Below, in pieces: positions 1,274 to 63,935 of a DNA stretch of 64,000 nucleotides; the first letter of the stretch is position 1; each line of letters begins with the position of its first letter. The stretch lies in the sequence record MT129652.1; one strand, 5' to 3'. The position numbers were made by a program, and so were the translations under genes. The notes beneath the pieces are model-generated. The model did no database searches and had not been told where the DNA came from. It was given only the letters and a program-made list of their open reading frames with translations. The DNA comes from Escherichia phage MN01.

Positions 1274-1504
1274 ATGTGGTATTATGCCCCAATGGCTGAT
1301 GAGCCTGTAAAAATTAGCCGTGCTAAGTTTACAAAGATTTACGGTCTCGTTTATAAAAAGTCTGATTACGGTGTGCGTTTTGAAGATGCACACTGTATCA
1401 ACGACCCTTATAATGAAGACCTCTATGGCAAATTGGTTCCTATCGTTAAGGGGTCCGCCTCTGAGATGATAGATGAATCTAATATATCTGCTGCTGAAAT
1501 TTAA
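1274..1504 (+). CDS. Hypothetical protein
   Basis: Second in-frame ATG of ORF 1250..1504 has GAGGAAA SD; promoter-leader cassette (GTGTACA ... ATCATTATC) directly upstream. Confidence 0.45.
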   Translation: MWYYAPMADEPVKISRAKFTKIYGLVYKKSDYGVRFEDAHCINDPYNEDLYGKLVPIVKGSASEMIDESNISAAEI

Positions 1505-1523
1505 GTTATCTGAGGAAAATATT

Positions 1524-2483
1524 ATGATGTTAGTTATTGGTTCTCGTGCATTACATAACGCTGGCCTGATTGAAAGTCAGAAAATTGAAAACTCTGATTG
1601 GGACTTCATCGCTGACCAAGGTTCCTGGAACCACTTTAAAGCACGTATGTTCGGTGCTCATGTTCCTGTGGATAACCCTGATGTCCAAGCTTTTAAATGT
1701 ATGTACAATGGCAAAGAAACTTATTTTGAAGCTTATATTGTCCGTGCCCTGACCAACGTACGAGAAATTACTGGTGAGCTTCAAGACGAAGATTTCACCT
1801 CAAGTTATCGTCTCTTGAAATACGCTGAAAATCATATTAAGAAAGACCGTCTTACAGGTTTCTATTGGGCAACTCCTGATATTTGTCTGGCAATTAAACT
1901 GTCTCATCGTTACCTGAAGAACAATCCATTCTTCCTGAAGACCATGAGCCATATTAATTACCTTCGTAATAAGGGTGTTGTTCTTAATGATGAACTGCAG
2001 AAAATCATGCTGCAACGGCAGGCAGAAACACTGTCATACAGCCACCCTAAACTAGACGTGGGCAAGAAAACTTTCTTTAATGATACAATCTATACCCTTG
2101 ACCATGACTCCATCCACGAGGCCGTGGCGCTTGCTGATAAGCCTGCATATAAGTTCTATATGAAGGATGATTCAGAAGTCATGACCTCGCGTGAAAAATT
2201 TGAAGCACTCCCTGATGTTATTAAACTGGCAGGTGTTTATGAAGAAGCATGTGTACTTGCTCTGGAGCGTTCGCAGGTTCCCAATGAGTTTAATATCTCT
2301 CCATCCGTGAGCTTCCATATTGCTCTGGAAAAAGTCTGCACCTCCATTACTTCTGGATGGTTCCGTGAGTATGCCTGGGAACATTACCAGGAAGTGGTTA
2401 ATATGTACAACACCCTGGGTCGCGAAGACTATGTTAAACGTTTCAAGGCTAACCAACATTTAATTCGTCCTTTCACAAAATAA
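1524..2483 (+). CDS. Hypothetical protein (319 aa)
   Basis: Internal ATG at 1524 preceded by GAGGAAAAT SD; long open frame typical of phage coding density. Confidence 0.6.
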   Translation: MMLVIGSRALHNAGLIESQKIENSDWDFIADQGSWNHFKARMFGAHVPVDNPDVQAFKCMYNGKETYFEAYIVRALTNVREITGELQDEDFTSSYRLLKYAENHIKKDRLTGFYWATPDICLAIKLSHRYLKNNPFFLKTMSHINYLRNKGVVLNDELQKIMLQRQAETLSYSHPKLDVGKKTFFNDTIYTLDHDSIHEAVALADKPAYKFYMKDDSEVMTSREKFEALPDVIKLAGVYEEACVLALERSQVPNEFNISPSVSFHIALEKVCTSITSGWFREYAWEHYQEVVNMYNTLGREDYVKRFKANQHLIRPFTK

Positions 2484-22620: not shown

Positions 22621-23094
22621 ATGTTGTTGACTGGCAAATTATACAAAGAAGAAAAACAAAAACTTTATGATGCACAAGCTGGTAAGTGTCCAATTTGCCA
22701 CCGTGATTTGGACTCTGATGTTCAGGCCAACCATCTTGACCATGACCACGAATTGAACGGGCCAAAAGCCGGTAAGGTTCGCGGGTTACTATGCAATCTG
22801 TGCAATGGAACAGAAGGGCAAATGAAGCATAAGTTCAGCCGTTCGGGTCTGAAAGGTCGTGATGTTGACTACCTGGAATGGTTAGAGAGTTTGCTTGTCT
22901 ATCTGAAATCTGATTATACCGAAAACAATATTCACCCTAATTTTGTGACAGACAAAGCTAAAGAGTTCGGTCGCCTGGGGAAAGAAGAAATGATTCAGGA
23001 AATGCTTTTGAACGGCATGACTTATAATGAATCTGATACGAAGCCTAAACTACAAGCTTCATTTAAAAAACAACTGAGGAAATCGCTTAAATGA
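22621..23094 (+). CDS. 49: Endonuclease VII (Holliday junction resolvase)
   Basis: MLLTGKLYKEEKQKLYDAQAGKCPICHRDL...HLDHDHELNGPKAGKVRGLLCNLCN...KKQLRKSLK closely matches T4 gp49; 157 aa. Confidence 0.93.
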   Translation: MLLTGKLYKEEKQKLYDAQAGKCPICHRDLDSDVQANHLDHDHELNGPKAGKVRGLLCNLCNGTEGQMKHKFSRSGLKGRDVDYLEWLESLLVYLKSDYTENNIHPNFVTDKAKEFGRLGKEEMIQEMLLNGMTYNESDTKPKLQASFKKQLRKSLK

Positions 23095-23179
23095 TTAATT
23101 TTTATGGAATTATTGTATATTGTATTGGCGAAGCTATAAACAATTTAATACGATTGATGGGTGAGGAGTATCCTTCTCA

Positions 23180-23431
23180 ATGGCTATTCCTCGTAACCAA
23201 TACAGGACCTTTCTAATGAACAAATTTCGTAATGCTGTTTCTGATATCCTGGCCAATATTACATTTGTCTTGTTTATTGTGTGCCTTTTAATTCTGGTCG
23301 TCCCATTTGGATTGCTGTTTGTGATGATTGGCGCCCTGAGTACTGAAAAGGGCCTTGAAGGGTCTGAGTTCGACAAACGAATCCAGGCTGTCCATAGTGT
23401 TATTGCTAAAATGATGAAGGTGAAAGAATGA
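23180..23431 (+). CDS. Hypothetical membrane protein
   Basis: 83 aa; central hydrophobic helix ITFVLFIVCLLILVVPFGLLFVMIGAL. Confidence 0.4.
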   Translation: MAIPRNQYRTFLMNKFRNAVSDILANITFVLFIVCLLILVVPFGLLFVMIGALSTEKGLEGSEFDKRIQAVHSVIAKMMKVKE

Positions 23432-27658: not shown

Positions 27659-27748
27659 TAACGTGGACAGGTGGCTAATGAAAGACGAACATCCGGATTT
27701 TTAAGCTTATGAATGACGAATACGAAAAAGTTTAAGAGGTCATATGAA

Positions 27749-27922
27749 TGACGAATTCGACGGATTTTGATAAGATTAAATCTGACAAAAATGAGATGAT
27801 ACTTCAATTTGAAGCCGCTCGCATTAAAGCAGAAAATGAAGGTACTATTACCTATAAGCCTATCAAGTTCAGGTCTTCTCATGAACCTCTGTATGGTGTA
27901 TTAATTGGAAAGGAAGCCTAGT
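27749..27922 (+). CDS. Hypothetical small protein (57 aa)
   Basis: ATG at 27749 after AAGAGG; preceded by a short duplicated pseudo-start ATGAATGACGAAT. Confidence 0.3.
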
Positions 27923-27958
27923 GCTTCCTTTTTTGCTTTATATTCGGGATGATAAAAT
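27911..27958 (+). promoter_or_regulatory. Terminator hairpin immediately followed by a MotA-box middle promoter
   Basis: GGAAGC-CTAGT-GCTTCC + TTTTTT; then TTTGCTTTA, 12 nt, TAAAAT. Confidence 0.5.
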
Positions 27959-27978
27959 GAACCAACTGAGGAGATTAT

Positions 27979-28122
27979 ATGGAATTATTTTTAGGATATG
28001 TTGTGTTATTCATGGCATTCTACACATTCACACGAGCTTGTTGGATAGGATTCTTTTCTACTCCTGACGGGTTCATTTCAATAATTTTATTTTGCACTGC
28101 GATAACGGCGCTTGGCTTATGA
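27979..28122 (+). CDS. Hypothetical small membrane protein (47 aa)
   Basis: ATG after GAGGAG SD; hydrophobic; stop overlaps the gene 47 start (ATGA). Confidence 0.35.
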   Translation: MELFLGYVVLFMAFYTFTRACWIGFFSTPDGFISIILFCTAITALGL

Positions 28123-29591: not shown

Positions 29592-31270
29592 AGACTTTTA
29601 AGCTTAAGAAAGTTATCTATAAAAATATTATGTCGGTTGGTGCTCAACCGATTACTGTTGAACTGGATAAAGTCCAGAAAACTCTGGTCACCGGCAAGAA
29701 TGGTGCGGGTAAATCTACGTTCCTTGAAGCGGTTACTTTTGCTATGTTCGGTAAGCCTTTCCGTGATGTAAAGAAAGGCCAGTTGATTAACTCGAGCAAC
29801 AAAAAAGATATGCTCGTTGAATTGTGGATGGAATATGATGGAAAAGAATACTATATCAAACGCGGGCAAAAACCCAATGTTTTTGAAATCTCTTGTGGCG
29901 GTAAACGTCTTGATGAATCTGCCAGCAGTAAAGACTTCCAAGCGGAATTTGAACAGCTTATCGGAATGTCATACGCCAGTTTCAAACAAATCGTCGTACT
30001 CGGCACAGCTGGATATACCCCTTTTATGGGCCTATCCACTCCTGCAAGAAGAAAACTCGTCGAAGACCTGTTAGAGGTTTCTGTACTGGCCGATATGGAT
30101 AAGCTGAACAAATCTCTTATCCGCGAAGTCAATAGCCAAATCCAGGTTATGGATGTACAGCATGACGGTATCGTTCAACAGATTAAAATCTATCAGGACA
30201 ATGAAGACCGTCAAAGAAAATTGTCAGGTGATAATCTGTTGCGACTGCAAACGATGTATGATGAACTTGCCACAGAAGCACGTGGAATCAAGGCAACTAT
30301 CGAAGAAGCAACGACAAGACTGACTGAAATAATCTTGGGAGAAGACCCCGAGCATGAACTCACGAAGTTAAAGCAGGAATCATTCCTGATTAAATCGAAG
30401 ATTGACGATTATCGAAAGGTTGTCAGCCTGTACGAGAAAGGTGGTTGTTGTCAGACTTGTGCTAGTCAGTTGCATCCAGGAGACCCTATTGTCGCCAGGA
30501 TTGAGTCAAAGATTGAAGAATGTAATGCATCGGCTGATAAGCATAAAGCTCGTCAGAATGCTGTTCAGGAGCAATTTGATACGTATTCTGCTGCAAGACA
30601 AAACCAGCGTACAATAGCACAAGACATTCAAACTAAGAAACAAACCTTAGTCCAGACTGTCGAAAAGGCTAAAAAGGTTAAAGCATTAATCGAGCAAGCC
30701 AAGTCAGAATTCATTGACCACGCAGCAGACATTAAAATGCTTCAAGACCAGCTTGATAAAATAGTCAAACAGAAATCTGACCTTGTGATGGAAAAATATC
30801 AACGTGGTATCCTAACGGATATGTTGAAAGATTCTGGTATTAAGGGCGCGATTATTAAGAAATATATTCCTATCTTTAATAAGCAGATAAACGCTTATCT
30901 TAAAGTTATGGAAGCTGATTATAGCTTTACGTTAGATGAAGAGTTCAACGAAACGATTAAATCTCGTGGTCGTGAAGACTTCAGCTATGCATCATTTAGC
31001 CAGGGTGAAAAAGCTCGTATCGATATTGCATTGCTGTTTACATGGCGCGATATTGCTGCAAAAGTATCTGGTGTGCAAATTAGTACGTTGATTCTGGATG
31101 AGGTCATGGATTCAGCCACTGACGCCGAAGGCATCAAAGCTATCCAGGCAATTATCAATAAATTGGAAGGTCAAAACGTGTTTATCATCAGTCACCGAGA
31201 CCATGACCCAGAAGCATATGGACAGCATCTTCAAATGAAAAAAGTCGGTCGATTTACTGTTCTGGAATGA
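29588..31270 (+). CDS. 46: Recombination ATPase gp46 (Rad50/SbcC-like)
   Basis: GTG start; Walker A TGKNGAGKST, central coiled coil with CxxC zinc hook (GGCCQTCASQ), signature SQGEKARI, Walker B LILDEV; 560 aa as in T4. Confidence 0.93.
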   Translation: MKTFKLKKVIYKNIMSVGAQPITVELDKVQKTLVTGKNGAGKSTFLEAVTFAMFGKPFRDVKKGQLINSSNKKDMLVELWMEYDGKEYYIKRGQKPNVFEISCGGKRLDESASSKDFQAEFEQLIGMSYASFKQIVVLGTAGYTPFMGLSTPARRKLVEDLLEVSVLADMDKLNKSLIREVNSQIQVMDVQHDGIVQQIKIYQDNEDRQRKLSGDNLLRLQTMYDELATEARGIKATIEEATTRLTEIILGEDPEHELTKLKQESFLIKSKIDDYRKVVSLYEKGGCCQTCASQLHPGDPIVARIESKIEECNASADKHKARQNAVQEQFDTYSAARQNQRTIAQDIQTKKQTLVQTVEKAKKVKALIEQAKSEFIDHAADIKMLQDQLDKIVKQKSDLVMEKYQRGILTDMLKDSGIKGAIIKKYIPIFNKQINAYLKVMEADYSFTLDEEFNETIKSRGREDFSYASFSQGEKARIDIALLFTWRDIAAKVSGVQISTLILDEVMDSATDAEGIKAIQAIINKLEGQNVFIISHRDHDPEAYGQHLQMKKVGRFTVLE

Positions 31271-31275
31271 GCCTC

Positions 31276-31992
31276 TTATTGAGGCTTCATTTTGCAGTTA
31301 TCAAAATGCCAACGTTTCATATTAGCTGGCATACCGACTACATTACAGTGTGGACACTGAATTTTGGGGTCCACCTTTTTCTTCCGGTTTGGATTGGATT
31401 TGCAGAATTGTTGGTGAGTGGATATAACACACTTTTTACCTTCAAGCCCGCAAAATTCACAATTTAAAATTTCATGTTTAGCTTGTTTTAAACCTACTGA
31501 AATTTTTTGCTTTTGCTTTTCCGGAATAGTATGAACAACCTTGTTTGGACCTTTGGAACAGTTATCAAAATGCCAACGATTCATATTGCCAGCGAGACCG
31601 GTTTTTCCACAGTGTGGACATTCGACTCTCGGTTTTAATTTGGCGGATTCTGACATTTTCTTTCTGGTTTCATCGGAGAAAATTTTATTTTGTTGAGCTT
31701 CCAAGTTTTTACGACGAAGCCATCCAAATAATTTGTTTTTGCTTCTGTCGGCATTTGGTGCAGAAACTGTCATCATGCGCGCGGCATAGACCAAAGAAGC
31801 GTTATTTGGATGCATTTTGACCAACAGTTGATGGCAAACGAAATGTTCCTCGGGAGTTAAATCAACAAGATTTGAAGCGTCGTCAGCCCCACCCATACAA
31901 CGGGGTATAATGTGATGGCTTTCAGAGTATGTGGTTAATTTGCGATTCAATGCTCTGCTAATAAGCTTTTGGTAAATGATGTTATAATTCAT
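31276..31992 (-). CDS. HNH homing-endonuclease-like protein with duplicated C-terminal zinc fingers
   Basis: Only long minus-strand gene in the region; HNH core SESHHIIPRCMGGADDASNLVDLTPEEHFVCH; repeats CPHCGKTGLAGNMNRWHFDNC and CPHCNVVGMPANMKRWHFDNC; start taken at internal ATG (MNYNIIYQ). Confidence 0.7.
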   Translation of the reverse strand: MNYNIIYQKLISRALNRKLTTYSESHHIIPRCMGGADDASNLVDLTPEEHFVCHQLLVKMHPNNASLVYAARMMTVSAPNADRSKNKLFGWLRRKNLEAQQNKIFSDETRKKMSESAKLKPRVECPHCGKTGLAGNMNRWHFDNCSKGPNKVVHTIPEKQKQKISVGLKQAKHEILNCEFCGLEGKKCVISTHQQFCKSNPNRKKKVDPKIQCPHCNVVGMPANMKRWHFDNCKMKPQ

Positions 31993-32005
31993 ATCAGACC
32001 CTTGT

Positions 32006-32224
32006 TTGATACTGCAACGGATAATATTATTTATGAGCAATTTTTTAACCGGGCAGCATTTACTGGCTGTCCCTGAAATTAAACGGTATGTGTTAGTTAA
32101 TACCTTTTCGAAAGATGAACACCTTGTCACTGAACGTGACTTGCAAAACGCTTTCGGTGAAGAATATGTTAAAATAATCGCGAACAGACACAATGCCTGG
32201 TTCGCATATGAATACTTTGATTAA
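32006..32224 (+). CDS. Hypothetical protein (uncertain; 45.2 position)
   Basis: 72 aa ORF between the HNH gene and rpbA; no motif. Confidence 0.3.
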   Translation: MILQRIILFMSNFLTGQHLLAVPEIKRYVLVNTFSKDEHLVTERDLQNAFGEEYVKIIANRHNAWFAYEYFD

Positions 32225-38211: not shown

Positions 38212-38454
38212 ATGGAAACATTAATTGCAGGTACTGTTGTTCTTGGCGCTGGTTCTTTCTTCCTGGCTGCACTGGCATATTTTCTGCCGTGGATTATCGC
38301 ACTACTGCGAGGAACCAAAAGTAATTGCGGAATCTTCTTTGTTAACCTCCTGTTAGGTTGGACAATGGTCGGATGGTTTATTGCATTTATCTGGGCACTC
38401 GTTGCTGAGCGTAAATCAAACGCACAAGTAATTATCATCAAGGAAACCAAATGA
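38212..38454 (+). CDS. imm: Imm-like superinfection immunity membrane protein
   Basis: 80 aa, two TM helices, LLGWTMVGWFIAFIWAL motif; immediately downstream of 43 as in T4. Confidence 0.55.
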   Translation: METLIAGTVVLGAGSFFLAALAYFLPWIIALLRGTKSNCGIFFVNLLLGWTMVGWFIAFIWALVAERKSNAQVIIIKETK

Positions 38455-38594
38455 AGATAATTACAATTATTGTACTGACTGCATTTTTTAGTATGTCAAT
38501 CTATTGGGCAATAATGACTCCGCATATGATTCCAACTTTAATTTTGGGTTGGGTATTTTTGGGACTCCAAGCTCGCTATGAATGTTTTAATTGA
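38451..38594 (+). CDS. Hypothetical small membrane protein (47 aa)
   Basis: ATGA overlap with the imm stop; hydrophobic. Confidence 0.3.
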   Translation: MKIITIIVLTAFFSMSIYWAIMTPHMIPTLILGWVFLGLQARYECFN

Positions 38595-38604
38595 GGAAAA
38601 TACA

Positions 38605-39108
38605 ATGAAAAAGTTAGCTATCGCAGCTGTTATGCTGCTATCTGGTTGTGCTTACCAGGGTGATGTTGTTAATGCCAACGAGATTGGTAAAGCGCGAATT
38701 GCTGCAGACCGTCAGGTGCATAATGGTTCCTTTGATTTCAAAGGTGGTACTGGACTTATCTACAAACGCGACAACAATCAATGTGGAAATAACTGCGCGA
38801 AATATGCTCAACGTGAAGTTGAATATCAGCGTGAACAAGCCGCGAAGCATGATGAAGTAATCGCTAAATTGGAAGCAGAAACCAAGCGACAAAATGACCT
38901 GGATACTGTTAACCAGATTTCACAGGTCTGCATGTCATATATCAATATGCAGATAAACATCATGCGTGCAGAAGCTTATCAGGCAGCGGAGACGGGTTCT
39001 CCAAAAGCCAATGAGTATCGCGATATGTATCAGCGTTCTGCTCAAAACCGTCTGAGCTATATTAATAAATGTGTAGCTAAAGAGAAAGCACGCCAAGGTA
39101 TTAACTGA
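38605..39108 (+). CDS. Putative lipoprotein
   Basis: Signal peptide with lipobox MKKLAIAAVMLLSGC after GAGGAAAAT SD; helical/coiled C-terminal region; 167 aa. Confidence 0.55.
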   Translation: MKKLAIAAVMLLSGCAYQGDVVNANEIGKARIAADRQVHNGSFDFKGGTGLIYKRDNNQCGNNCAKYAQREVEYQREQAAKHDEVIAKLEAETKRQNDLDTVNQISQVCMSYINMQINIMRAEAYQAAETGSPKANEYRDMYQRSAQNRLSYINKCVAKEKARQGIN

Positions 39109-39215
39109 TGCTATTATTACTTCTGATTGTTGGAACAGTAATTGGTTTGCTGCTATTAGAAAAGCGTAATAAGCATTTGGCTGAAGAAAACTGGAAACGT
39201 GGAAACGTTTACTAA
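39108..39215 (+). CDS. Hypothetical single-pass membrane peptide (35 aa)
   Basis: MLLLLLIVGTVIGLLLL... ; ATG overlaps the lipoprotein stop. Confidence 0.3.
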   Translation: MLLLLLIVGTVIGLLLLEKRNKHLAEENWKRGNVY

Positions 39216-39242
39216 ATTACTCTGAACTGCGAGAAAAATATT

Positions 39243-39371
39243 ATGATTGGTACGCTATTGATTAGTCTGTGGCTGTTGTCTGCATTTGGTATTGGTTTTA
39301 TGTACTGGTGGGACAAACGTCAGACCCGGAAGATTGTTGAACGTGCAATTAATCGTGGATTCAATCGTTAA
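39243..39371 (+). CDS. Hypothetical single-pass membrane peptide (42 aa)
   Basis: MIGTLLISLWLLSAFGIGFMYWW... hydrophobic N-terminus, basic C-terminus. Confidence 0.3.
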   Translation: MIGTLLISLWLLSAFGIGFMYWWDKRQTRKIVERAINRGFNR

Positions 39372-39450
39372 TTGCTCTAAAAATACAGTGATATAATTAT
39401 CCTATCTTAAACCTGTGAGAAAAATATAATGGTGCCTATGGAAAAAATGA

Positions 39451-40629
39451 ATGTCTATTGCAGATTTGAAATCCCGTTTGATTAAAGCTTCTACATCTAA
39501 AATGACTGCGACTCTTACCAAGTCCAAGTTTTTTAATGATAAAGATGTAGTTCGTACAAAAATCCCGATGCTGAACATTGCAATCAGCGGTGCACTAGAT
39601 GGTGGTATGCAGTCAGGTTTGACTATTTTTGCTGGTCCGTCAAAACACTTTAAATCCAATATGGGTTTAACGATGGTCTCTGCATATATGAACAAATACC
39701 CCGATGCAATCTGTTTGTTCTATGATTCAGAATTTGGTATCACAGAAGCATATCTTCGTGCAATGAAAGTAGACCCGGAACGTGTTATCCATACACCAAT
39801 CCAGTCGGTTGAACAATTGAAAGTTGATATGGTTAACCAGCTTGAAGCAATTGAGCGTGGTGAAAAAGTCATTATCTTTATTGACTCAATCGGTAACATG
39901 GCGTCGAAAAAAGAAACAGAAGATGCGATGAACGAAAAAGTCGTTGGCGATATGACTCGTGCTAAATCCCTGAAATCTCTGTTCCGTATTGTTACCCCAT
40001 ATTTTAGTATCAAGGATATTCCTTGTGTCGCGGTTAACCATACAATCGAGACGATTGAGATGTACAGCAAAACCGTTATGACCGGTGGTACAGGTGTTAT
40101 GTATTCTGCGGACACAGTATTCATTATCGGCAAACGCCAGATTAAAGAAACTGGTAAAGAACTTGAAGGTTTCCAATTTGTTCTGAACGCCGAAAAATCT
40201 CGTATGGTCAAAGAGAAAAGTAAATTCTTCATTGATGTAAAATTCGATGGTGGTATTGACCCGTATTCTGGTCTGCTTGATATGGCAATGGAAATCGGAT
40301 TTGTGGTGAAACCGAAAGTTGGTTGGTATAACCGTGAATATCTTGATGTTGAGACCGGTGAAATGGTCCGCGAAGAAAAATCATGGCGTGCAAAAGATAC
40401 TAACTGCACCGAATTCTGGGGTCCGTTGTTCAAGCACGAACCTTTCCGCGATGCAATCAAACGCCATTACCAACTGGGTGCAATCGATAGCAATGCTGTT
40501 GTTGATGCCGAAGTTGATGCGCTTATTGCCTCCAAGGTTGAAAAATACTCTGCTCCTGAAGGTAAGACAAAACCGTCTGCTGCAGATATCGAAAACGATT
40601 TAGATATGATGGAAGACCTTGATGAATGA
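39451..40629 (+). CDS. uvsX: Recombinase UvsX (RecA-like)
   Basis: MSIADLKSRLIKASTSKMTATLTKSKFFNDKDVV..., Walker A GPSKHFKS; 392 aa vs 391 in T4. Confidence 0.95.
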   Translation: MSIADLKSRLIKASTSKMTATLTKSKFFNDKDVVRTKIPMLNIAISGALDGGMQSGLTIFAGPSKHFKSNMGLTMVSAYMNKYPDAICLFYDSEFGITEAYLRAMKVDPERVIHTPIQSVEQLKVDMVNQLEAIERGEKVIIFIDSIGNMASKKETEDAMNEKVVGDMTRAKSLKSLFRIVTPYFSIKDIPCVAVNHTIETIEMYSKTVMTGGTGVMYSADTVFIIGKRQIKETGKELEGFQFVLNAEKSRMVKEKSKFFIDVKFDGGIDPYSGLLDMAMEIGFVVKPKVGWYNREYLDVETGEMVREEKSWRAKDTNCTEFWGPLFKHEPFRDAIKRHYQLGAIDSNAVVDAEVDALIASKVEKYSAPEGKTKPSAADIENDLDMMEDLDE

Positions 40630-40963
40630 TATCGATTTATCTGATTTAGATAATTTCGAGAAAGATGCGGAGGGAGCTAAGGCTCCTTCTGTACCTTACT
40701 ACGAAAAAAGTTTGGAGATTATCCGGCAATCCATGGGAACTGTACGACAGGAAATTCTGTTATCACTCCCTGATGGGTCCAGTCACATCGTGTACGTAAC
40801 CGGAATTAAAATTGAACCATCTGGAAAAGTTTCAGTTGATTTCGGCACCCCTTCTGAAGACCGCAAAGCGGAGCTTGCAGTGCATGTAGAAAAGTGTGTT
40901 ACAATGCAAATACAAGATGAAATTGATAAGATTAAAATGAAAAAGAGGTGGTGGAAGTGGTAG
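40619..40963 (+). CDS. 40: gp40-like protein (head vertex assembly chaperone position)
   Basis: 114 aa; synteny between uvsX and 41. Confidence 0.55.
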   Translation: MMNDIDLSDLDNFEKDAEGAKAPSVPYYEKSLEIIRQSMGTVRQEILLSLPDGSSHIVYVTGIKIEPSGKVSVDFGTPSEDRKAELAVHVEKCVTMQIQDEIDKIKMKKRWWKW

Positions 40964-42387
40964 AAACTATTTTATCCCAGCTACTCTTTAACAAGGAATA
41001 TTTTGTTAAAGTCTGGCCATATCTGAATAACACATATTTTGAAAAGGGTCCAGCGAAGACCCTTTTCAATACGATTAACGAACACGTAAAAGAATATCAA
41101 GCGGTACCAACTAAGACTGCACTTGATATCGCGCTCGACAGCTCTGACCTTTCTGAAGTCGAATATGAAGGCACAAAGAAACTCTTAGGAGTCCTGGCCG
41201 ATACTCCAGAAGACCAGGAATGGTTGGTTAAAGAAACCGAGAAGTATGTACAGAAGTCTGCGATGTTCAATGCCACATCCAGGATTATCGAAATTCAGAG
41301 CAATGCCGAACTTCCGAAAGATAAACGTGATAAACGAATCCCGGATATTGGTGCTATCCCTGATATCATGCGGGATGCATTATCTATCTGTTTTGACTCT
41401 GCCCTGGGCCATGACTGGTTAAACGATTACGAAGCTCGATTCCAGACTTATCTGAACAAATCGAAAAAGGTTCCGTTTCGCATTAACATCCTGAATAAAA
41501 TCACGAAGGGTGGAGTTGAGTATGGTACAGAGAACGTTTTACTGGCCGGGACAAACGTCGGGAAATCTCTAGGACTTTGTTCATTAGCCGCTGACTATCT
41601 TCAGACTGGTCATAATGTGCTTTATATAAGCATGGAAATGGCTGAAGAAGTATGTGCCAAACGTATTGATGCCAACTTGCTGGATGTGTCTCTGGATGAT
41701 ATTGATGAAGGTCATATATCATGGGCGGAATATAAAGCTAAGATGGAAAAATGGCGTGCTTCCGGGACTCTTGGGACTCTGAAGATAAAACAATATCCAA
41801 CTGGTGGTGCTCATGCGGATACCTTCCGCGCATTGCTGAATGAATACAAACTGAAGCAGGGGTTTGTACCGGATGTGATTATTGTTGACTACCTGGCAAT
41901 CTGCGCAAGCTCAAGACTGAAAACGTTTACCGAAAATAGTTACGGTCTGATTAAGATGGTTGCAGAAGAACTTCGTGGTCTGGCAGTCGAGAAAAATGTG
42001 GTTCTATGGACCGCGGCGCAGACAACCAGGGGCGCGAACGTTGCAGCTGAGATTGATATGGCTGATATCGCAGAATCCTTTGGTATTGCTCACACGGCTG
42101 ACTTTATGTTGGGTGTTGTTGAGACCGAAGAATTCGCTCAAATGGGGCTGCAGTTAATCAAACAGCTTAAGTCTCGTTATGGCGATAAGAACTACTATAA
42201 TAAATTCAAGATGGGCGTTAAGAAAGGCAATCAGCGCTGGTATGAGGTTGATGATGATTCGGCTCCTAAACAAGGCCCTACGGTTAAAGAAGCCACCGGT
42301 GAGATGAATCGCCAGGCTGAAATGAATAGACAAACCAGGGTCAACAGGAGCGACCTGGACGACCTCGCTGCTCAAATGAAATTTTAA
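40957..42387 (+). CDS. 41: Replicative DNA helicase gp41 (DnaB-like)
   Basis: GTG start (40948, 40951 or 40957; T4 begins MVEIILS); Walker A GTNVGKS; strong similarity along the whole length. Confidence 0.95.
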   Translation: MVETILSQLLFNKEYFVKVWPYLNNTYFEKGPAKTLFNTINEHVKEYQAVPTKTALDIALDSSDLSEVEYEGTKKLLGVLADTPEDQEWLVKETEKYVQKSAMFNATSRIIEIQSNAELPKDKRDKRIPDIGAIPDIMRDALSICFDSALGHDWLNDYEARFQTYLNKSKKVPFRINILNKITKGGVEYGTENVLLAGTNVGKSLGLCSLAADYLQTGHNVLYISMEMAEEVCAKRIDANLLDVSLDDIDEGHISWAEYKAKMEKWRASGTLGTLKIKQYPTGGAHADTFRALLNEYKLKQGFVPDVIIVDYLAICASSRLKTFTENSYGLIKMVAEELRGLAVEKNVVLWTAAQTTRGANVAAEIDMADIAESFGIAHTADFMLGVVETEEFAQMGLQLIKQLKSRYGDKNYYNKFKMGVKKGNQRWYEVDDDSAPKQGPTVKEATGEMNRQAEMNRQTRVNRSDLDDLAAQMKF

Positions 42388-45190: not shown

Positions 45191-46219
45191 ATGTCATATA
45201 TTGATAAAGAATTTGCAGTCAGAGCTTTATCGTATCAACCACGTTATAGAGAAGTCACCGGGAGCACATTTAAGGCAAACTGTCGTTGCAAGGTTTGCGG
45301 TGACTCTCAGAAAGATTCACACAAGGCCCGATTCTGGGCGTATACCAATCCGGCTGACGGTGCGGTTTACGTGAAATGTTTTAACTGTGACTACTCCACG
45401 CATATAAGCAAATACATAAAAGAGTTTGAGCCTGATTTACATCGGGAATATATGGTTGAGAAGTATAAGGAGAATGCCTTTGGCAGACAACGTAATGAAG
45501 TTGCAGAAACTCCGAAAGAACCAGAAAAAACTCCGGTTATTGAGCAACTTGCTTTTTGCGAAAGAATCGATACTTTACCAGAAGCGCATCCGATAGTTAA
45601 GTATGTAAAAAGTCGGTGTATTCCGAGCAATGTTTGGAACCGGTTATGGTTTACAAACAAATGGCCTGCATTAGTTAACTCCGTTAATCCTGGGACGTAT
45701 AAGAATGAAACGAATGAACCACGCTTGGTTATTCCTATCTTCAACGGCAAAAAAGAAATCGAATCTTTCCAAGGACGAGCTCTTCGCAAAGATGCACCAC
45801 AAAAATATATCACAATCAAAGCCCACCCAGAAGCTTCCAAAGTCTATGGTGTAGACAAGATTGACGAACGCAAGCGCGTGTGGGTAATGGAAGGTCCGAT
45901 TGATAGTTTGTTTATCCCTAACAGCATTGCGATAACCGGTGGAACATTAGCATTGGAAGCCGTTCCTTATGCAGAAACCCGAGTATGGGTAATGGACAAC
46001 GAGCCAAGACATCCTGATACGATTAAACGTATGAAGAAACTTGTTGAAGCCGGTGAAGCCGTTATGTTCTGGGACAATGCACCATGGCATACGAAAGACA
46101 TAAATGAGATGGTTAAATCAGAGGGTGCAACCCCTGAACAAATCGAATCATATATGGCCGATAACGTTACTCAAGGGCTGCTGGCGAGAATGCGACTTTC
46201 GAAGTACGCAAAAGTTTAG
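45191..46219 (+). CDS. 61: DNA primase gp61
   Basis: N-terminal zinc-binding CRCKVCGDS...CFNC, TOPRIM-like core; 342 aa as in T4. Confidence 0.9.
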   Translation: MSYIDKEFAVRALSYQPRYREVTGSTFKANCRCKVCGDSQKDSHKARFWAYTNPADGAVYVKCFNCDYSTHISKYIKEFEPDLHREYMVEKYKENAFGRQRNEVAETPKEPEKTPVIEQLAFCERIDTLPEAHPIVKYVKSRCIPSNVWNRLWFTNKWPALVNSVNPGTYKNETNEPRLVIPIFNGKKEIESFQGRALRKDAPQKYITIKAHPEASKVYGVDKIDERKRVWVMEGPIDSLFIPNSIAITGGTLALEAVPYAETRVWVMDNEPRHPDTIKRMKKLVEAGEAVMFWDNAPWHTKDINEMVKSEGATPEQIESYMADNVTQGLLARMRLSKYAKV

Positions 46220-46416
46220 GAAGGGATTCCGGTAAAGTAACCGATGATGGAATGGATATGTTCCATTGTGACCTGGGGTAAGTGTACCCCTTGTGATGCA
46301 GCGATAGGCACAACCAGTAAGTTCCACAGAAAAACATCAAGAGCTAAAAAGCCCATGATTAGTTTTTTGTCTTTCTTACTGGTTAATTTCCAAATCTGAT
46401 AGAATAATGTTCCCAT
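46216..46416 (-). CDS. Hypothetical small membrane protein, minus strand (paralog 2)
   Basis: 66 aa; GGTGG SD on the minus strand; LWNLLVVPIAASQG motif shared with the neighbouring minus-strand gene. Confidence 0.45.
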   Translation of the reverse strand: MGTLFYQIWKLTSKKDKKLIMGFLALDVFLWNLLVVPIAASQGVHLPQVTMEHIHSIIGYFTGIPS

Positions 46417-46424
46417 AGTTCCAC

Positions 46425-46622
46425 CTATACAAGGCCGATTAATGCCAGTGAAACATCTACAACCGATTCGAGCGCGACGACTGGTAATATAATACCATAT
46501 GTCAATGCAACAGGAGCAACAATGAAGTTCCAGAGTAGAACTGAACAGAGCACCGAAAGGACCAGAATCGTTCGCTTACGACTGCCTTTGATGGCTTGAA
46601 TTAGACTAGATAGTTTTAGCAT
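46425..46622 (-). CDS. Hypothetical small membrane protein, minus strand (paralog 1)
   Basis: Start at internal ATG with AGGAGG SD 6 nt upstream (minus strand); LLWNFIVAPVALTYG motif; 65 aa. Confidence 0.5.
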   Translation of the reverse strand: MLKLSSLIQAIKGSRKRTILVLSVLCSVLLWNFIVAPVALTYGIILPVVALESVVDVSLALIGLV

Positions 46623-46706
46623 ATATCCTCCTTTCTTGTATTTATGCTTCAAACCAATACGATATAATTAACATACAAATAACATGAATTGATAAGGAAA
46701 AATATA

Positions 46707-47225
46707 ATGGCTCATTTTAACGAGTGTTCTCAACTGATTGCGGGTGTTGATAAAGCTGAAGAAGCTTATGACAATGCAATTATCGAAGGTACTGACCCGC
46801 TGCAGATTATGCTTGATATGCAGAAATCTTTGCAGGTCCGGTTGGCTACTGAAAAACCAGAATATAACTCACATCCAGATGAATTGGCTACTGCAGGTGA
46901 TGTTGTTACCTGGCTCCGCAACCAGAAAGATTATATTGATGATGAATTCCGCGAACTGATTACTGCATTAGGTGGCATGTCCAATGGCGAGAAAGCTGCC
47001 TCGGCCGTATGGAAACCATGGAAAGCACAACATGGTGAAATGCAGCAAACCCTGATTAACGATTTGTCTCCTGAAGACCAGCTCGAAATTAAATTCGAAA
47101 TGATTGATATCCTGCACTTTGTTCTGAACATGTTCCATGGTCTTGGTCTATCTGCAGAAGAAATCTTTAAACTGTATTACCTGAAAAACGCTGAGAACTT
47201 TGCTCGTCAGGACCGAGGTTATTAA
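46707..47225 (+). CDS. 56: dCTP pyrophosphatase gp56 (MazG-like)
   Basis: MAHFNECSQLIAGVDKA...DPLQIMLDMQ...EDQLEIKFEMIDILHFVLNMF...NFARQDRGY closely matches T4 gp56. Confidence 0.9.
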   Translation: MAHFNECSQLIAGVDKAEEAYDNAIIEGTDPLQIMLDMQKSLQVRLATEKPEYNSHPDELATAGDVVTWLRNQKDYIDDEFRELITALGGMSNGEKAASAVWKPWKAQHGEMQQTLINDLSPEDQLEIKFEMIDILHFVLNMFHGLGLSAEEIFKLYYLKNAENFARQDRGY

Positions 47226-47506
47226 TGGCTCGTTTAAATAAACGTCAGCTTAAGAAAGCTCGTAAGAAGCATATTAATGATATAATTGAAAACGCTAATG
47301 TTGAAATCTTTGTAGAACTTTTAGCCAATCAACTAAAAAATTTATCTAAACAAGAAATTGCTATGAATACTGAAAATGCTAAAAATGTAATCGAAACTCA
47401 TAATGTTTTTGCCCAAGCTACTGCTGAATACATTGCTAATCCTACTGCTGAAAATCTAGCTAAAATGACCGAAGCCAATAAAGCAGTCCAAGCCGCCAAA
47501 TTGTAA
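47225..47506 (+). CDS. Hypothetical protein
   Basis: 93 aa; basic N-terminus. Confidence 0.5.
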   Translation: MARLNKRQLKKARKKHINDIIENANVEIFVELLANQLKNLSKQEIAMNTENAKNVIETHNVFAQATAEYIANPTAENLAKMTEANKAVQAAKL

Positions 47507-47547: not shown

Positions 47548-47781
47548 ATGGGTGGTTTCGTTAATATCAAAACCTTTACGCATGCAGCTGGTGAAGGTAA
47601 AGAAGTTAAAGGTACTGAGGTTTCAGTTCCATTTGAAATCTATTCTGATGCGCATCGTATTGCTAATGCTCATTATCAGACTTTCCCTTCGGCCGTTGCA
47701 GCCTATTCTACTGTAGTGACTGATGCTGCTGACTGGAAGACCAAGAATGAGGCAATGTTTACGCCGACCGATATTGTTTAA
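47548..47781 (+). CDS. soc: Small outer capsid protein Soc
   Basis: GFVNIKTF...EVSVPFEIYSDAHRIANAHYQTFPSAVAAYSTV matches T4 Soc; 77 aa. Confidence 0.85.
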   Translation: MGGFVNIKTFTHAAGEGKEVKGTEVSVPFEIYSDAHRIANAHYQTFPSAVAAYSTVVTDAADWKTKNEAMFTPTDIV

Positions 47782-62473: not shown

Positions 62474-63451
62474 ATGTTTAATATCAAATGTATGTCTAAA
62501 GCCGAACAAGCTGATGTGGTCCAGATGTATTCAACGGGCAATTATACCCAGCCTGAATTGGCAGAATATTTTGCTGTGTCCGTTGACACCATTCGCCGCG
62601 TTTTGAAAAATGATAAAGAATCAAAATTAGCTAGAACCATTTCCGCATCACTGAAAGCAGCTGTTGGTGTGGCGATTAATGCTCCGGTGACAGTAACGGT
62701 TGAAGTCCCGGTTGCTGATACAATCGGCGGTAGCCGCCCGGAAATCGTATGGAACGCATCAAGCAAATTCGTTTCCATCACCGAAGGCCGCACGGTCTGG
62801 AACGCAACAAAAGACCATAAACACTTTGATGATATTATTCAGGCATTGATTGAATTCCGGTATGAAGATGCTATCGAGTTTATCTCTATCAAAGCTGCAG
62901 TGCAAAAATATGTGAAAGGTGATGTGCGTATTGAAGGTGGTAGCCTGTTCTATCAGGGAATTGAACTGCGCTCTGGTTTGGTTACTCGTATCATCGATTC
63001 AATGCAAAATGGCGAAGACTTTGAATTCTATCTGCCATTCCTTGAAAATCTCCTTGAGAACCCGAGTGAGAAAGCTGTACAGCGTTTGTTTGACTTCTTG
63101 GTTGCTAACGATATCGAAATCACCGAAGATGGCCATTTCATCGCCTGGAAAATGGTTCGTTCAACCTACAAAGATTGCCACTCAAATACATTCGACAACA
63201 GCCCTGGTCAATATGTTAAAATGCCGCGCTCTCGTGTGAATGACAATGACGAACAGACCTGTTCAACTGGGCTGCACGTTTGTTCTAAAGGTTATATCGG
63301 AAGTGGCTTTGGTCATGGTGATGGGCGCATCGTATCCTGTAAAGTTCACCCGCGCGATGTTGTAAGCATCCCGGTGGATTATTCCGATAGTAAGATGAGG
63401 GTTTGCGGTTACCTGGTTCTTGAAGATGTGACCGAACGTTTCAATGATTAA
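62474..63451 (+). CDS. rIIB: rIIB protein
   Basis: 325 aa directly downstream of rIIA with N-terminal helix-turn-helix-like segment (ELAEYFAVSVDTIRRVL); synteny. Confidence 0.7.
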   Translation: MFNIKCMSKAEQADVVQMYSTGNYTQPELAEYFAVSVDTIRRVLKNDKESKLARTISASLKAAVGVAINAPVTVTVEVPVADTIGGSRPEIVWNASSKFVSITEGRTVWNATKDHKHFDDIIQALIEFRYEDAIEFISIKAAVQKYVKGDVRIEGGSLFYQGIELRSGLVTRIIDSMQNGEDFEFYLPFLENLLENPSEKAVQRLFDFLVANDIEITEDGHFIAWKMVRSTYKDCHSNTFDNSPGQYVKMPRSRVNDNDEQTCSTGLHVCSKGYIGSGFGHGDGRIVSCKVHPRDVVSIPVDYSDSKMRVCGYLVLEDVTERFND

Positions 63452-63935
63452 ACAAACAATTGCTAAAGATGGCTCGGCTCGTGGTATTGTCCACGGGCTA
63501 GGTCACACGCCTGAATACATTGTATGGATTGGCATGAAAGCTCGGTGTTGCAATCCAACACATATTAGTTATTCTCGATATGGCGGTCGGGGTATCACTG
63601 TTTGCGATGAATGGCTGCATGATTTTGAAAGATTTTATACAGATATGGGGCCACGACCCACTGACAAACATCAACTTGACCGAACAGATAACGATAAAGG
63701 GTACTCTCCCGATAACTGCAGATGGGTTAGTCCAGGCGAGAATGCTTTAAATAAGCGCCCGTATAATAACAACAAGTCTGGATTTAAAGGAGTCTCGTTT
63801 GATAAACGAGCTTTGAATAAACCATGGCGAGCCACTATTATGCGAAATAAAAAACAAATTCAAGTCGGAGCTTTTGCAACTCCAGAAGAAGCAAATGAAG
63901 CTCGATTAAAATATATGGAAGAACACAATGTCTAA
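63444..63935 (+). CDS. HNH endonuclease domain protein with C-terminal AP2-like DNA-binding domain
   Basis: YSPDNCRWVSPGENALNK (HNH_3-like) followed by NKSGFKGVSFDKRALNKPWRA...GAFATPEEANEA (AP2-like); 163 aa. Confidence 0.6.
   Translation: MIKQTIAKDGSARGIVHGLGHTPEYIVWIGMKARCCNPTHISYSRYGGRGITVCDEWLHDFERFYTDMGPRPTDKHQLDRTDNDKGYSPDNCRWVSPGENALNKRPYNNNKSGFKGVSFDKRALNKPWRATIMRNKKQIQVGAFATPEEANEARLKYMEEHNV

Follow-up and report, generated by a model that had tools for sequence, protein, structure and literature searches.

A dCTPase kept without a hydroxymethylase: the thymidylate synthase of Gaprivervirus may supply 5-methylcytosine

Introduction

The gp56 pyrophosphatase of phage T4 cleaves dCTP and dUTP and spares hmdCTP and dTTP; it is annotated as a dCTPase which also removes dUTP/dUDP. 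Why should a T4-like phage keep such an enzyme when no synthase of a substitute nucleotide is found? The question arises at the gp56 locus of Escherichia phage MN01, of which we analysed a stretch of 64 kb (the window), and it has been published for the genus Gaprivervirus as an open puzzle in 2021 and again in 2025. Nikulin and Zimin (2021, PMC8056088) noted that the genus has no known synthase of a non-canonical base, yet carries DenA, DenB, Alc and a dCTPase, and suggested that an unknown protein is involved. A table of 2025 lists Gaprivervirus as positive for dCTPase, denB, denA, ndd and alc and as negative for hmC (PMC12115623).

Results

Gene order in the window

The window belongs to the T4-like genus Gaprivervirus and covers an early-gene region, with its plus strand in the direction of early transcription. 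It is collinear over the full 64 kb with phage VR20, a close relative at 93% nucleotide identity. Within the 6 kb around gp56, the best genome matches were TH54 (95.7%) and TH41, UPEC01 and VR20 (93%). The genes follow the order known from T4, which is gene 55, 47, 46, 45, 44, 62, regA, 43, imm, uvsX, 40, 41, 61, 56, soc, modB, modA, dda, 39, rIIA and rIIB. The gp56 locus and its synteny anchors are as follows:

45191..46219, plus strand: DNA primase gp61, upstream synteny anchor (collinear with VR20 gp030 and T4 gene 61)
46707..47225, plus strand: gp56 homolog, a predicted pyrophosphatase for dCTP/dUTP in the all-alpha NTP pyrophosphohydrolase superfamily (T4 homology, Pfam, conservation, AF2/Foldseek)
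47548..47781, plus strand: small outer capsid protein soc, downstream synteny anchor (Pfam Soc, 1.9e-20)

Several other features lie away from this locus. VR20 has nrdG and nrdD for the anaerobic ribonucleotide reductase (38830-41230). Both are missing from the window at 23091-23216, leaving about 125 bp between a 55.8-like ORF and endonuclease VII (22621-23094); Dhakavirus VR5 is likewise without both genes at the same spot. Between gene 46 and 45.2/rpbA, an insert specific to the window and missing from VR20 (31268-32042) harbours a free-standing HNH homing endonuclease (31276-32193, minus strand), which shows the pattern SHHIIPRCMGG...EEH...H followed by repeated Zn-ribbon motifs and probably starts at an internal Met. 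Immediately 3' of rIIB, where VR20 has denB.1, an ORF of 163 aa (63444-63935, plus strand) with a weak match to the AP2 domain (E 2e-4) suggests an insert of the homing-endonuclease type. The variable region upstream of e.2 encodes a 336-aa protein (1473-2483, plus strand; counterpart VR20 gp128) which consists of the recently defined domains DUF7277 (4.8e-26) and DUF7275 (1.1e-75).

The gp56 gene is intact and highly conserved

The gp56 ORF encodes 172 aa with the N-terminus MAHFNEC as in T4 gp56, and a ribosome-binding site (AAGGA) is located 6 nt upstream. In a tblastn search, T4 gp56 matched it over residues 1-171 of 171 with 67.4% identity (E 1.5e-77), and the position between gp61 primase and soc is the same as in T4. 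Two Pfam families were recognized above their cut-offs, namely dUTPase_2 (PF08761; 29.5 bits versus 22.9, E 1.1e-6), which covers residues 140-172 only, and PRA-PH (22.3 bits versus 21.3, E 1.7e-4).

Values of dN/dS were in the same range within Gaprivervirus (0.02-0.16), between Gaprivervirus and Dhakavirus (0.09-0.16) and between Gaprivervirus and T4 (0.12-0.15). Aligning gp56 from T4, Dhakavirus and Gaprivervirus left 111 of 173 columns invariant, including IDDEFREL and SPEDQLEIKFE(M/L)(I/V)DI(L/F)HFVLNMF. Across 40 homologs, 64 columns were still invariant, among them the acidic residues D79, E80, E83, E127, E131 and D134, which are putative metal ligands by comparison with the superfamily. 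Across T4-like phages, identity in the gp56 family declines smoothly between 96% and 69%, and no step marks the border of the genus. By these sequence measures, gp56 is intact and under strong purifying selection. An earlier, sequence-only reading of the window had called the gp56 dCTPase retained and highly conserved, and the full-length T4 homology, the dN/dS values and the invariant acidic motifs bear this out.

The AF2 model of gp56 is all-alpha with six helices (pLDDT 85.9). Its top Foldseek matches in the PDB were the mammalian dCTP pyrophosphatase DCTPP1 and the MazG-like DR2231, which belong to the expected superfamily, although both scores are weak (E at least 0.16, TM 0.33-0.64, probability up to 0.99); for RB69 gp56, Lee et al. 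(2026) likewise obtained this top match. A PDB search by sequence returned 1w2y only (E 0.59), a marginal match to a dimeric dUTPase. Among the closest folds are the DCTPP1 structures 2oig and 6sqw, in which 5-methyl-dC nucleotides are bound, so the likeness in fold is uninformative on discrimination at C5.

The alleles of gp56 in Dhakavirus (VR5) and Gaprivervirus are 85-92% identical. At residues ~108-118, the window and VR20 read GEMQQTLINDL, and TH54, TH40, P8 and Dhakavirus VR5 read AEFRNRRIDEL. Judged from the sequences, these mosaic alleles indicate recombination of segments across the border between Gaprivervirus and Dhakavirus.

Two paralogous ORFs for small membrane proteins of 66 and 75 aa (46216-46416 and 46425-46652, minus strand), which have ...LWN(L/F)(L/I)V(V/A)P(I/V)A... 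in common, occupy the interval between genes 61 and 56, where T4 has dam; a dam methylase was not found in the 64 kb window. Downstream, the ATG of a lysine-rich 93-aa ORF without a Pfam match (47225-47506, plus strand) overlaps the gp56 stop (ATGA), and the segment 47256-47491 is missing from VR20. Scanning for promoters and terminators around gp56 gave nothing beyond the shuffled expectation.

The sites of gene 42 and of both glucosyltransferase genes are empty

In T4, the interval between imm and uvsX is taken up by gene 42, beta-gt and segA, and that between a-gt.2 and 47.1 by a-gt together with mobB. The corresponding sites in the window contain:

27748..28122, plus strand: a-gt.2 (27748-27921) and 47.1 (27979-28122), the empty alpha-gt site, with a gap of 57 nt between the ORFs
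38212..38454, plus strand: imm, which bounds the gene 42/beta-gt site on its left side (collinear in VR20 and T4)
38605..39108, plus strand: lipoprotein at the gene 42/beta-gt site (MKKLAIAAVMLLSGC lipobox; no Pfam family)
39451..40629, plus strand: uvsX, which bounds the gene 42/beta-gt site on its right side (likewise collinear in VR20 and T4)

Besides the lipoprotein, the imm-uvsX interval encodes only small membrane ORFs. By tblastn, none of the T4 proteins gp42, beta-gt and alpha-gt found a homolog in the 64 kb window; their best E-values were 0.12, 0.56 and 2.3. The negative searches and the two empty syntenic sites confirm that gene 42 and the glucosyltransferases are missing at the expected loci, as had been read from the sequence. 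The complete VR20 genome was also negative for gp42, alpha-gt and beta-gt, using the three T4 proteins and the divergent Dhakavirus VR5_043 as queries; a gp42 elsewhere in the genome, which together with hmC had been proposed as a refutation, was thus not found anywhere in VR20.

In Dhakavirus VR5, a cluster of five genes (VR5_042-046) is present between imm and uvsX. It encodes a TS homolog, a P-loop kinase, a HAD-type phosphatase, a nucleotidyltransferase-kinase fusion and a 297-aa putative transferase; the TS homolog, VR5_043, is 24% identical to T4 gp42 and has the residues D177/E143/N169. Dhakaviruses have been assigned a modification of the 5-hydroxycytosine-arabinose type, for which RB69 gp48 is the 5hodCMP synthase (Lee et al. 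2026). Gaprivervirus resembles this system in gene order and in the 85-92% identity to VR5 gp56, but the cluster is wholly missing: no homologs of VR5_042-046 were found in the window or in VR20, and the lipoprotein VR5_047 is the only shared neighbour.

The ORF at 38578/38605-39108 was considered as a replacement of gene 42 and rejected on account of its LSGC lipobox and the lack of a Pfam family. In addition, the 52% identical counterpart of this lipoprotein, VR5_047, adjoins the modification cluster of Dhakavirus and does not stand in its place.

Cytosine in Gaprivervirus DNA is probably modified

The sequence-only reading started from the possibility that the cytosine of this phage is unmodified, a premise that is probably wrong. 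According to Gordeeva et al. (2019, PMC6326788), the DNA of phage VR7 'has modified cytosines' that are non-glycosylated, as concluded from restriction digests in which T4 beta-glucosyltransferase was either included or left out, and VR7 is described there apart from the 'hydroxymethylated' T4(147). The propagation host of VR7 was BL21. The annotation of VR20 includes alc, denA, denB, ndd, cd, frd, td and gp1.

If cytosine were unmodified, the loss of gene 42 would be a return to ordinary DNA and gp56 would act as a dUTPase in house-cleaning or in the supply of dCMP/dUMP, as in phages of the RB49/RB43 type. These phages, which are treated as having canonical DNA and as able to transduce it, do encode gp56 homologs (PMC8056088), so gp56 alone is no proof of modification. 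In addition, T4 gp56 acts on dUTP/dUDP, too, and the annotations of the genus do not include any known synthase. However, an active dCTPase without a substitute nucleotide would starve replication, genes directed against dC DNA are retained in the genus (alc, denB, denA and ndd; PMC12115623), and the restriction analysis of PMC6326788 found modified cytosines in VR7. Moreover, the sole TS of the genus carries Asp177, whereas RB49 has Asn177 (see below). Because of the VR7 cytosines, the retained anti-dC genes and Asp177, we regard ordinary cytosine as quite improbable. The same three observations, with Asp177 located in the sole TS-fold gene, support the other option that had been raised, a different modification pathway encoded elsewhere.

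The thymidylate synthase of Gaprivervirus carries Asp at position 177

The only TS-fold gene of VR20 is annotated as td; neither a second TS nor a ThyX motif was found in its genome. The protein reads ...YQRSVDVFLGLPFDIGSY..., which places Asp at the position of Asn177 in E. coli ThyA, and the motif of Gaprivervirus td is GLPFDIGSY. All eight translated td genes of the Gaprivervirus type have Asp177 (VR20, VR7, VR26, TH54, TH41, TH40, CJ20 and Yersinia phage P8). Since td lies outside the 64 kb window, Asp177 in phage MN01 is expected from these 93-96% identical relatives. The 32 phage records with a td of this type are the same set that has the imm-lipoprotein-uvsX junction of the window, and all top matches of the window are included.

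Lee et al. list 12 residues that lie no more than 6 A from C5; among these, position 177 is the sole difference between Gaprivervirus Td and T4-type Td. Leu143, Asp169, His147, Cys146, the residues on the folate side and the C-terminal ...MAV are all kept, and about 30 substitutions, including E82Q, A179G and A182G, are specific to the clade. In a database of 5.8 billion proteins, the four clusters nearest to VR20 Td (98-86% identity) have GLPFDIGSY, after which identity is at most 70%; the other T-even Td clusters have GLPFNIASY in 115 of 116 cases. Among the nearest 150 TS representatives (clusters at 50% identity), 138 have Asn and 8 have Asp at position 177, and by this count the exchange of Asn177 for Asp is rare yet recurrent in TS.

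Td of Dhakavirus is 83% identical to that of T4, while the values for Gaprivervirus are 69% with Dhakavirus and 66% with T4, so that Gaprivervirus Td forms a long branch. For 12 other genes, Gaprivervirus and Dhakavirus were the closest pair in all except uvsX (11/12).

According to published residue rules, Asp177 leads to a preference for dCMP, Leu143 is associated with transfer of a methyl group and Asp/Glu143 with that of a hydroxymethyl group, whereas Asn169 is found in 5-hydroxy-dCMP synthases (PMC13326640; see also PMC8670742). Under these rules, the combination of Asp177, Leu143 and Asp169 predicts that Gaprivervirus Td is a 5-methyl-dCMP synthase. Deaminase-linked TS homologs have previously been predicted to be dCMP methylases from the residue at the N177 position, and five out of seven made 5mdCMP when co-expressed with T4 gp1 (bioRxiv 10.1101/2024.12.05.627091). 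As stated in PMC8670742, N177D in E. coli and N229D in L. casei turn TS into a dCMP methylase; Gaprivervirus Td resembles these engineered enzymes in having the same lone substitution in an otherwise canonical TS site. It differs in that the change is natural and fixed in the genus, that it recurs in Acinetobacter phages and that it comes with the ~30 clade-specific substitutions, which may tune activity. The laboratory N177D enzymes are poor catalysts.

In the literature searched, a Td turned into a dCMP methylase through Asn177Asp is a candidate that we did not find. The search, whose coverage was incomplete and did not extend to the original VR5/VR7/VR20 papers (Arch Virol), also returned nothing on the base identity of Gaprivervirus or on a link between td and 5mC.

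Td-Asp177 might use dCMP and still not lead to plain 5mC, either because the end base is 5hmC or a derivative or because the enzyme accepts both dUMP and dCMP and C is replaced only in part. A few exchanged residues do decide whether a TS homolog yields a methyl, a hydroxymethyl or a hydroxyl product (PMC13326640), two of the seven predicted homologs mentioned above did not make 5mdCMP, and E82Q, A179G and A182G are additional changes of this clade. We nevertheless consider such an outcome unlikely: Leu143, Asp169 and His147, like the C-terminus and the residues on the folate side, are as in a TS that transfers methyl, and in PMC6326788 VR7 is set apart from hydroxymethylated T4(147) after the T4 beta-glucosyltransferase test. 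Furthermore, glycosyltransferase, TET-like and kinase genes were not found in the window or VR20, using T4 and VR5 queries and Pfam on 20 ORFs.

Asp177 recurs in Acinetobacter phages without gp42

Acinetobacter phages 133 and ZZ1 have been named as gp42-less but positive for alc, denB and dCTPase, and Aeromonas phages AS-szw, AS-zj and Asswx_1 and Morganella phage MP1 were flagged, too (PMC8056088). The td genes of 133 (L013:30517-31464) and ZZ1 (L014:27347-28279) encode Asp177 together with Leu143, and cd is annotated in both phages as well as in VR20. Going by these residues, 133 and ZZ1 may likewise carry 5-methylcytosine. Both td genes are annotated as plain thymidylate synthase and have Met at position 165, as in T4 gp42.

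As controls, Bp7 (Dhakavirus), Acinetobacter phage Acj61, chosen as a presumed representative of the gp42-type pathway, and RB49 all have Asn177. RB49 (Krischvirus) is treated as a phage with canonical DNA (PMC8056088), and no alc or denB is annotated in the region examined. Asp177 goes with the gp42-less, alc- and denB-positive state in three lineages, and the five comparators have Asn177 (T4-type, Bp7, Acj61, RB49 and E. coli ThyA).

This distribution also bears on the suggestion of Nikulin and Zimin, by which a non-TS enzyme encoded in the ~106 kb beyond the window would make the new base and Asp177 would be unrelated or secondary. Many genus-specific ORFs have no assignable function, and the DNA of Krischvirus phage SAP contains glucosyl-methyl-dC in spite of having no known synthase (PMC13390438), from which it follows that hidden pathways exist in Straboviridae. 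On the other hand, when 20 ORFs of the window and VR20 that are unassigned or specific to the genus were scanned against Pfam, they gave DUFs only and nothing enzyme-like, and the association of Asp177 with the gp42-less state is hard to understand if the residue is incidental. We therefore assign this explanation a low probability.

Discussion

A proposed route to 5-methylcytosine

The reading we favour, and hold to be rather likely, is that gp56 keeps its T4 role and Td-Asp177 makes 5mC in place of hmC. The enzyme activities, the identity of the base and the resemblance of MN01 td to that of its relatives are what we infer from comparisons of sequence. In the proposed scheme, Gaprivervirus would have lost the TS-homolog and sugar cluster that its sister Dhakavirus keeps between imm and uvsX. 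The gp56 protein would convert dCTP/dCDP to dCMP and dUTP/dUDP to dUMP, thereby keeping unsubstituted dC out of the DNA and supplying dCMP. From dCMP and CH2-THF, Td-Asp177 would form 5-methyl-dCMP, with Frd recycling DHF. Phosphorylation of 5-methyl-dCMP by gp1, a step for which T4 gp1 has been employed in co-expression work (bioRxiv 10.1101/2024.12.05.627091), would give the diphosphate and host Ndk would then produce 5-methyl-dCTP for incorporation into DNA. The Cd deaminase would turn part of the 5-methyl-dC nucleotide pool into dT nucleotides, to which host ThyA may add. Finally, 5mC would label the DNA as self, to be spared by Alc and EndoII/IV of the phage. Such DNA is a target of the E. 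coli type IV restriction systems McrA/McrBC/Mrr and thus an odd choice for a coliphage. As to Alc, the enzyme is blocked by CpG methylation (PMC8056088).

In Xp12-type phages, 5mdC nucleotides are turned into dT nucleotides by the deaminase, and a second TS is unneeded; pyrophosphatases of the PRA-PH type, a family that gp56 matches, are among the commonest domain neighbours of such deaminases (bioRxiv 10.1101/2024.12.05.627091). The idea that gp56 supplies dCMP holds up in a changed form, in that the dCMP would feed a dCMP methylase, but the setting of unmodified cytosine in which it had been placed is improbable. The substrate range of T4 gp56, which spares hmdCTP and dTTP, fits an exclusion of any C5 substituent. 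No change in gp56 would then be needed in the 5mC scheme, and this would explain the mosaic and 85-92% identical alleles of Gaprivervirus and Dhakavirus. The closest solved folds (DCTPP1), however, do accept 5-methyl-dCTP.

Compared with the hmC pathway of T4 (gp56, gp42, gp1, DNA, alpha/beta-gt), Gaprivervirus has an orthologous gp56 (67%) at the same place between gene 61 and soc, and its relatives have the companions gp1, cd, frd, alc, denA, denB and ndd. In contrast to T4, gp42 and glucosyltransferases are missing and the Td ortholog is the predicted C5 modifier, adding methyl instead of hydroxymethyl. The 5mC system of the Xanthomonas phage Xp12 type (5mdCMP synthase, deaminase and MazG/PRA-PH) and the one predicted for Gaprivervirus follow the same logic and have in common Asp177, a methyl-type site, an enzyme of the dCMP-deaminase family and a putative all-alpha pyrophosphatase. 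Unlike Xp12-type phages, Gaprivervirus is a T-even myovirus with the anti-dC functions Alc and EndoII/IV, its putative synthase arose recently from T4-type Td (66-69% identity) with 1 of 12 C5-lining residues changed, and the deaminase and TS genes are not adjacent, being about 11 kb apart in VR20.

Implications

More broadly, Gapriverviruses and, independently, 133/ZZ1 could be the first T4-like phages with 5mC for cytosine, made by a T4-type TS that was switched by a natural Asn177 to Asp exchange. One TS plus the deaminase would then be the source of 5mdCTP as well as of dTTP, and the anti-dC machinery would work with any C5 substituent that marks the DNA as self. We see the chances for and against this wider proposal as evenly balanced.

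The papers of 2021 and 2025 left the base of Gaprivervirus open and hence did not judge the transduction risk for therapy (PMC8056088, PMC12115623). The Asp177 td gives a specific and cheaply checkable prediction, namely 5mC by a re-purposed Td. If it holds true, nature repeats a TS mutagenesis result of 1992, and every 'thymidylate synthase' annotated in a phage should be inspected at the ThyA positions 177, 143 and 169. The phages would be expected to be sensitive to 5mC-dependent defences (McrBC, Mrr, MspJI-type, BrxU) and resistant to those specific for hmC or glucose, which would bear on the sequencing, cloning and host-range engineering of Gapriverviruses. It would also mean that a phage which has lost its modification cluster can swap the 'self' mark of its DNA through a single exchange in a housekeeping enzyme.
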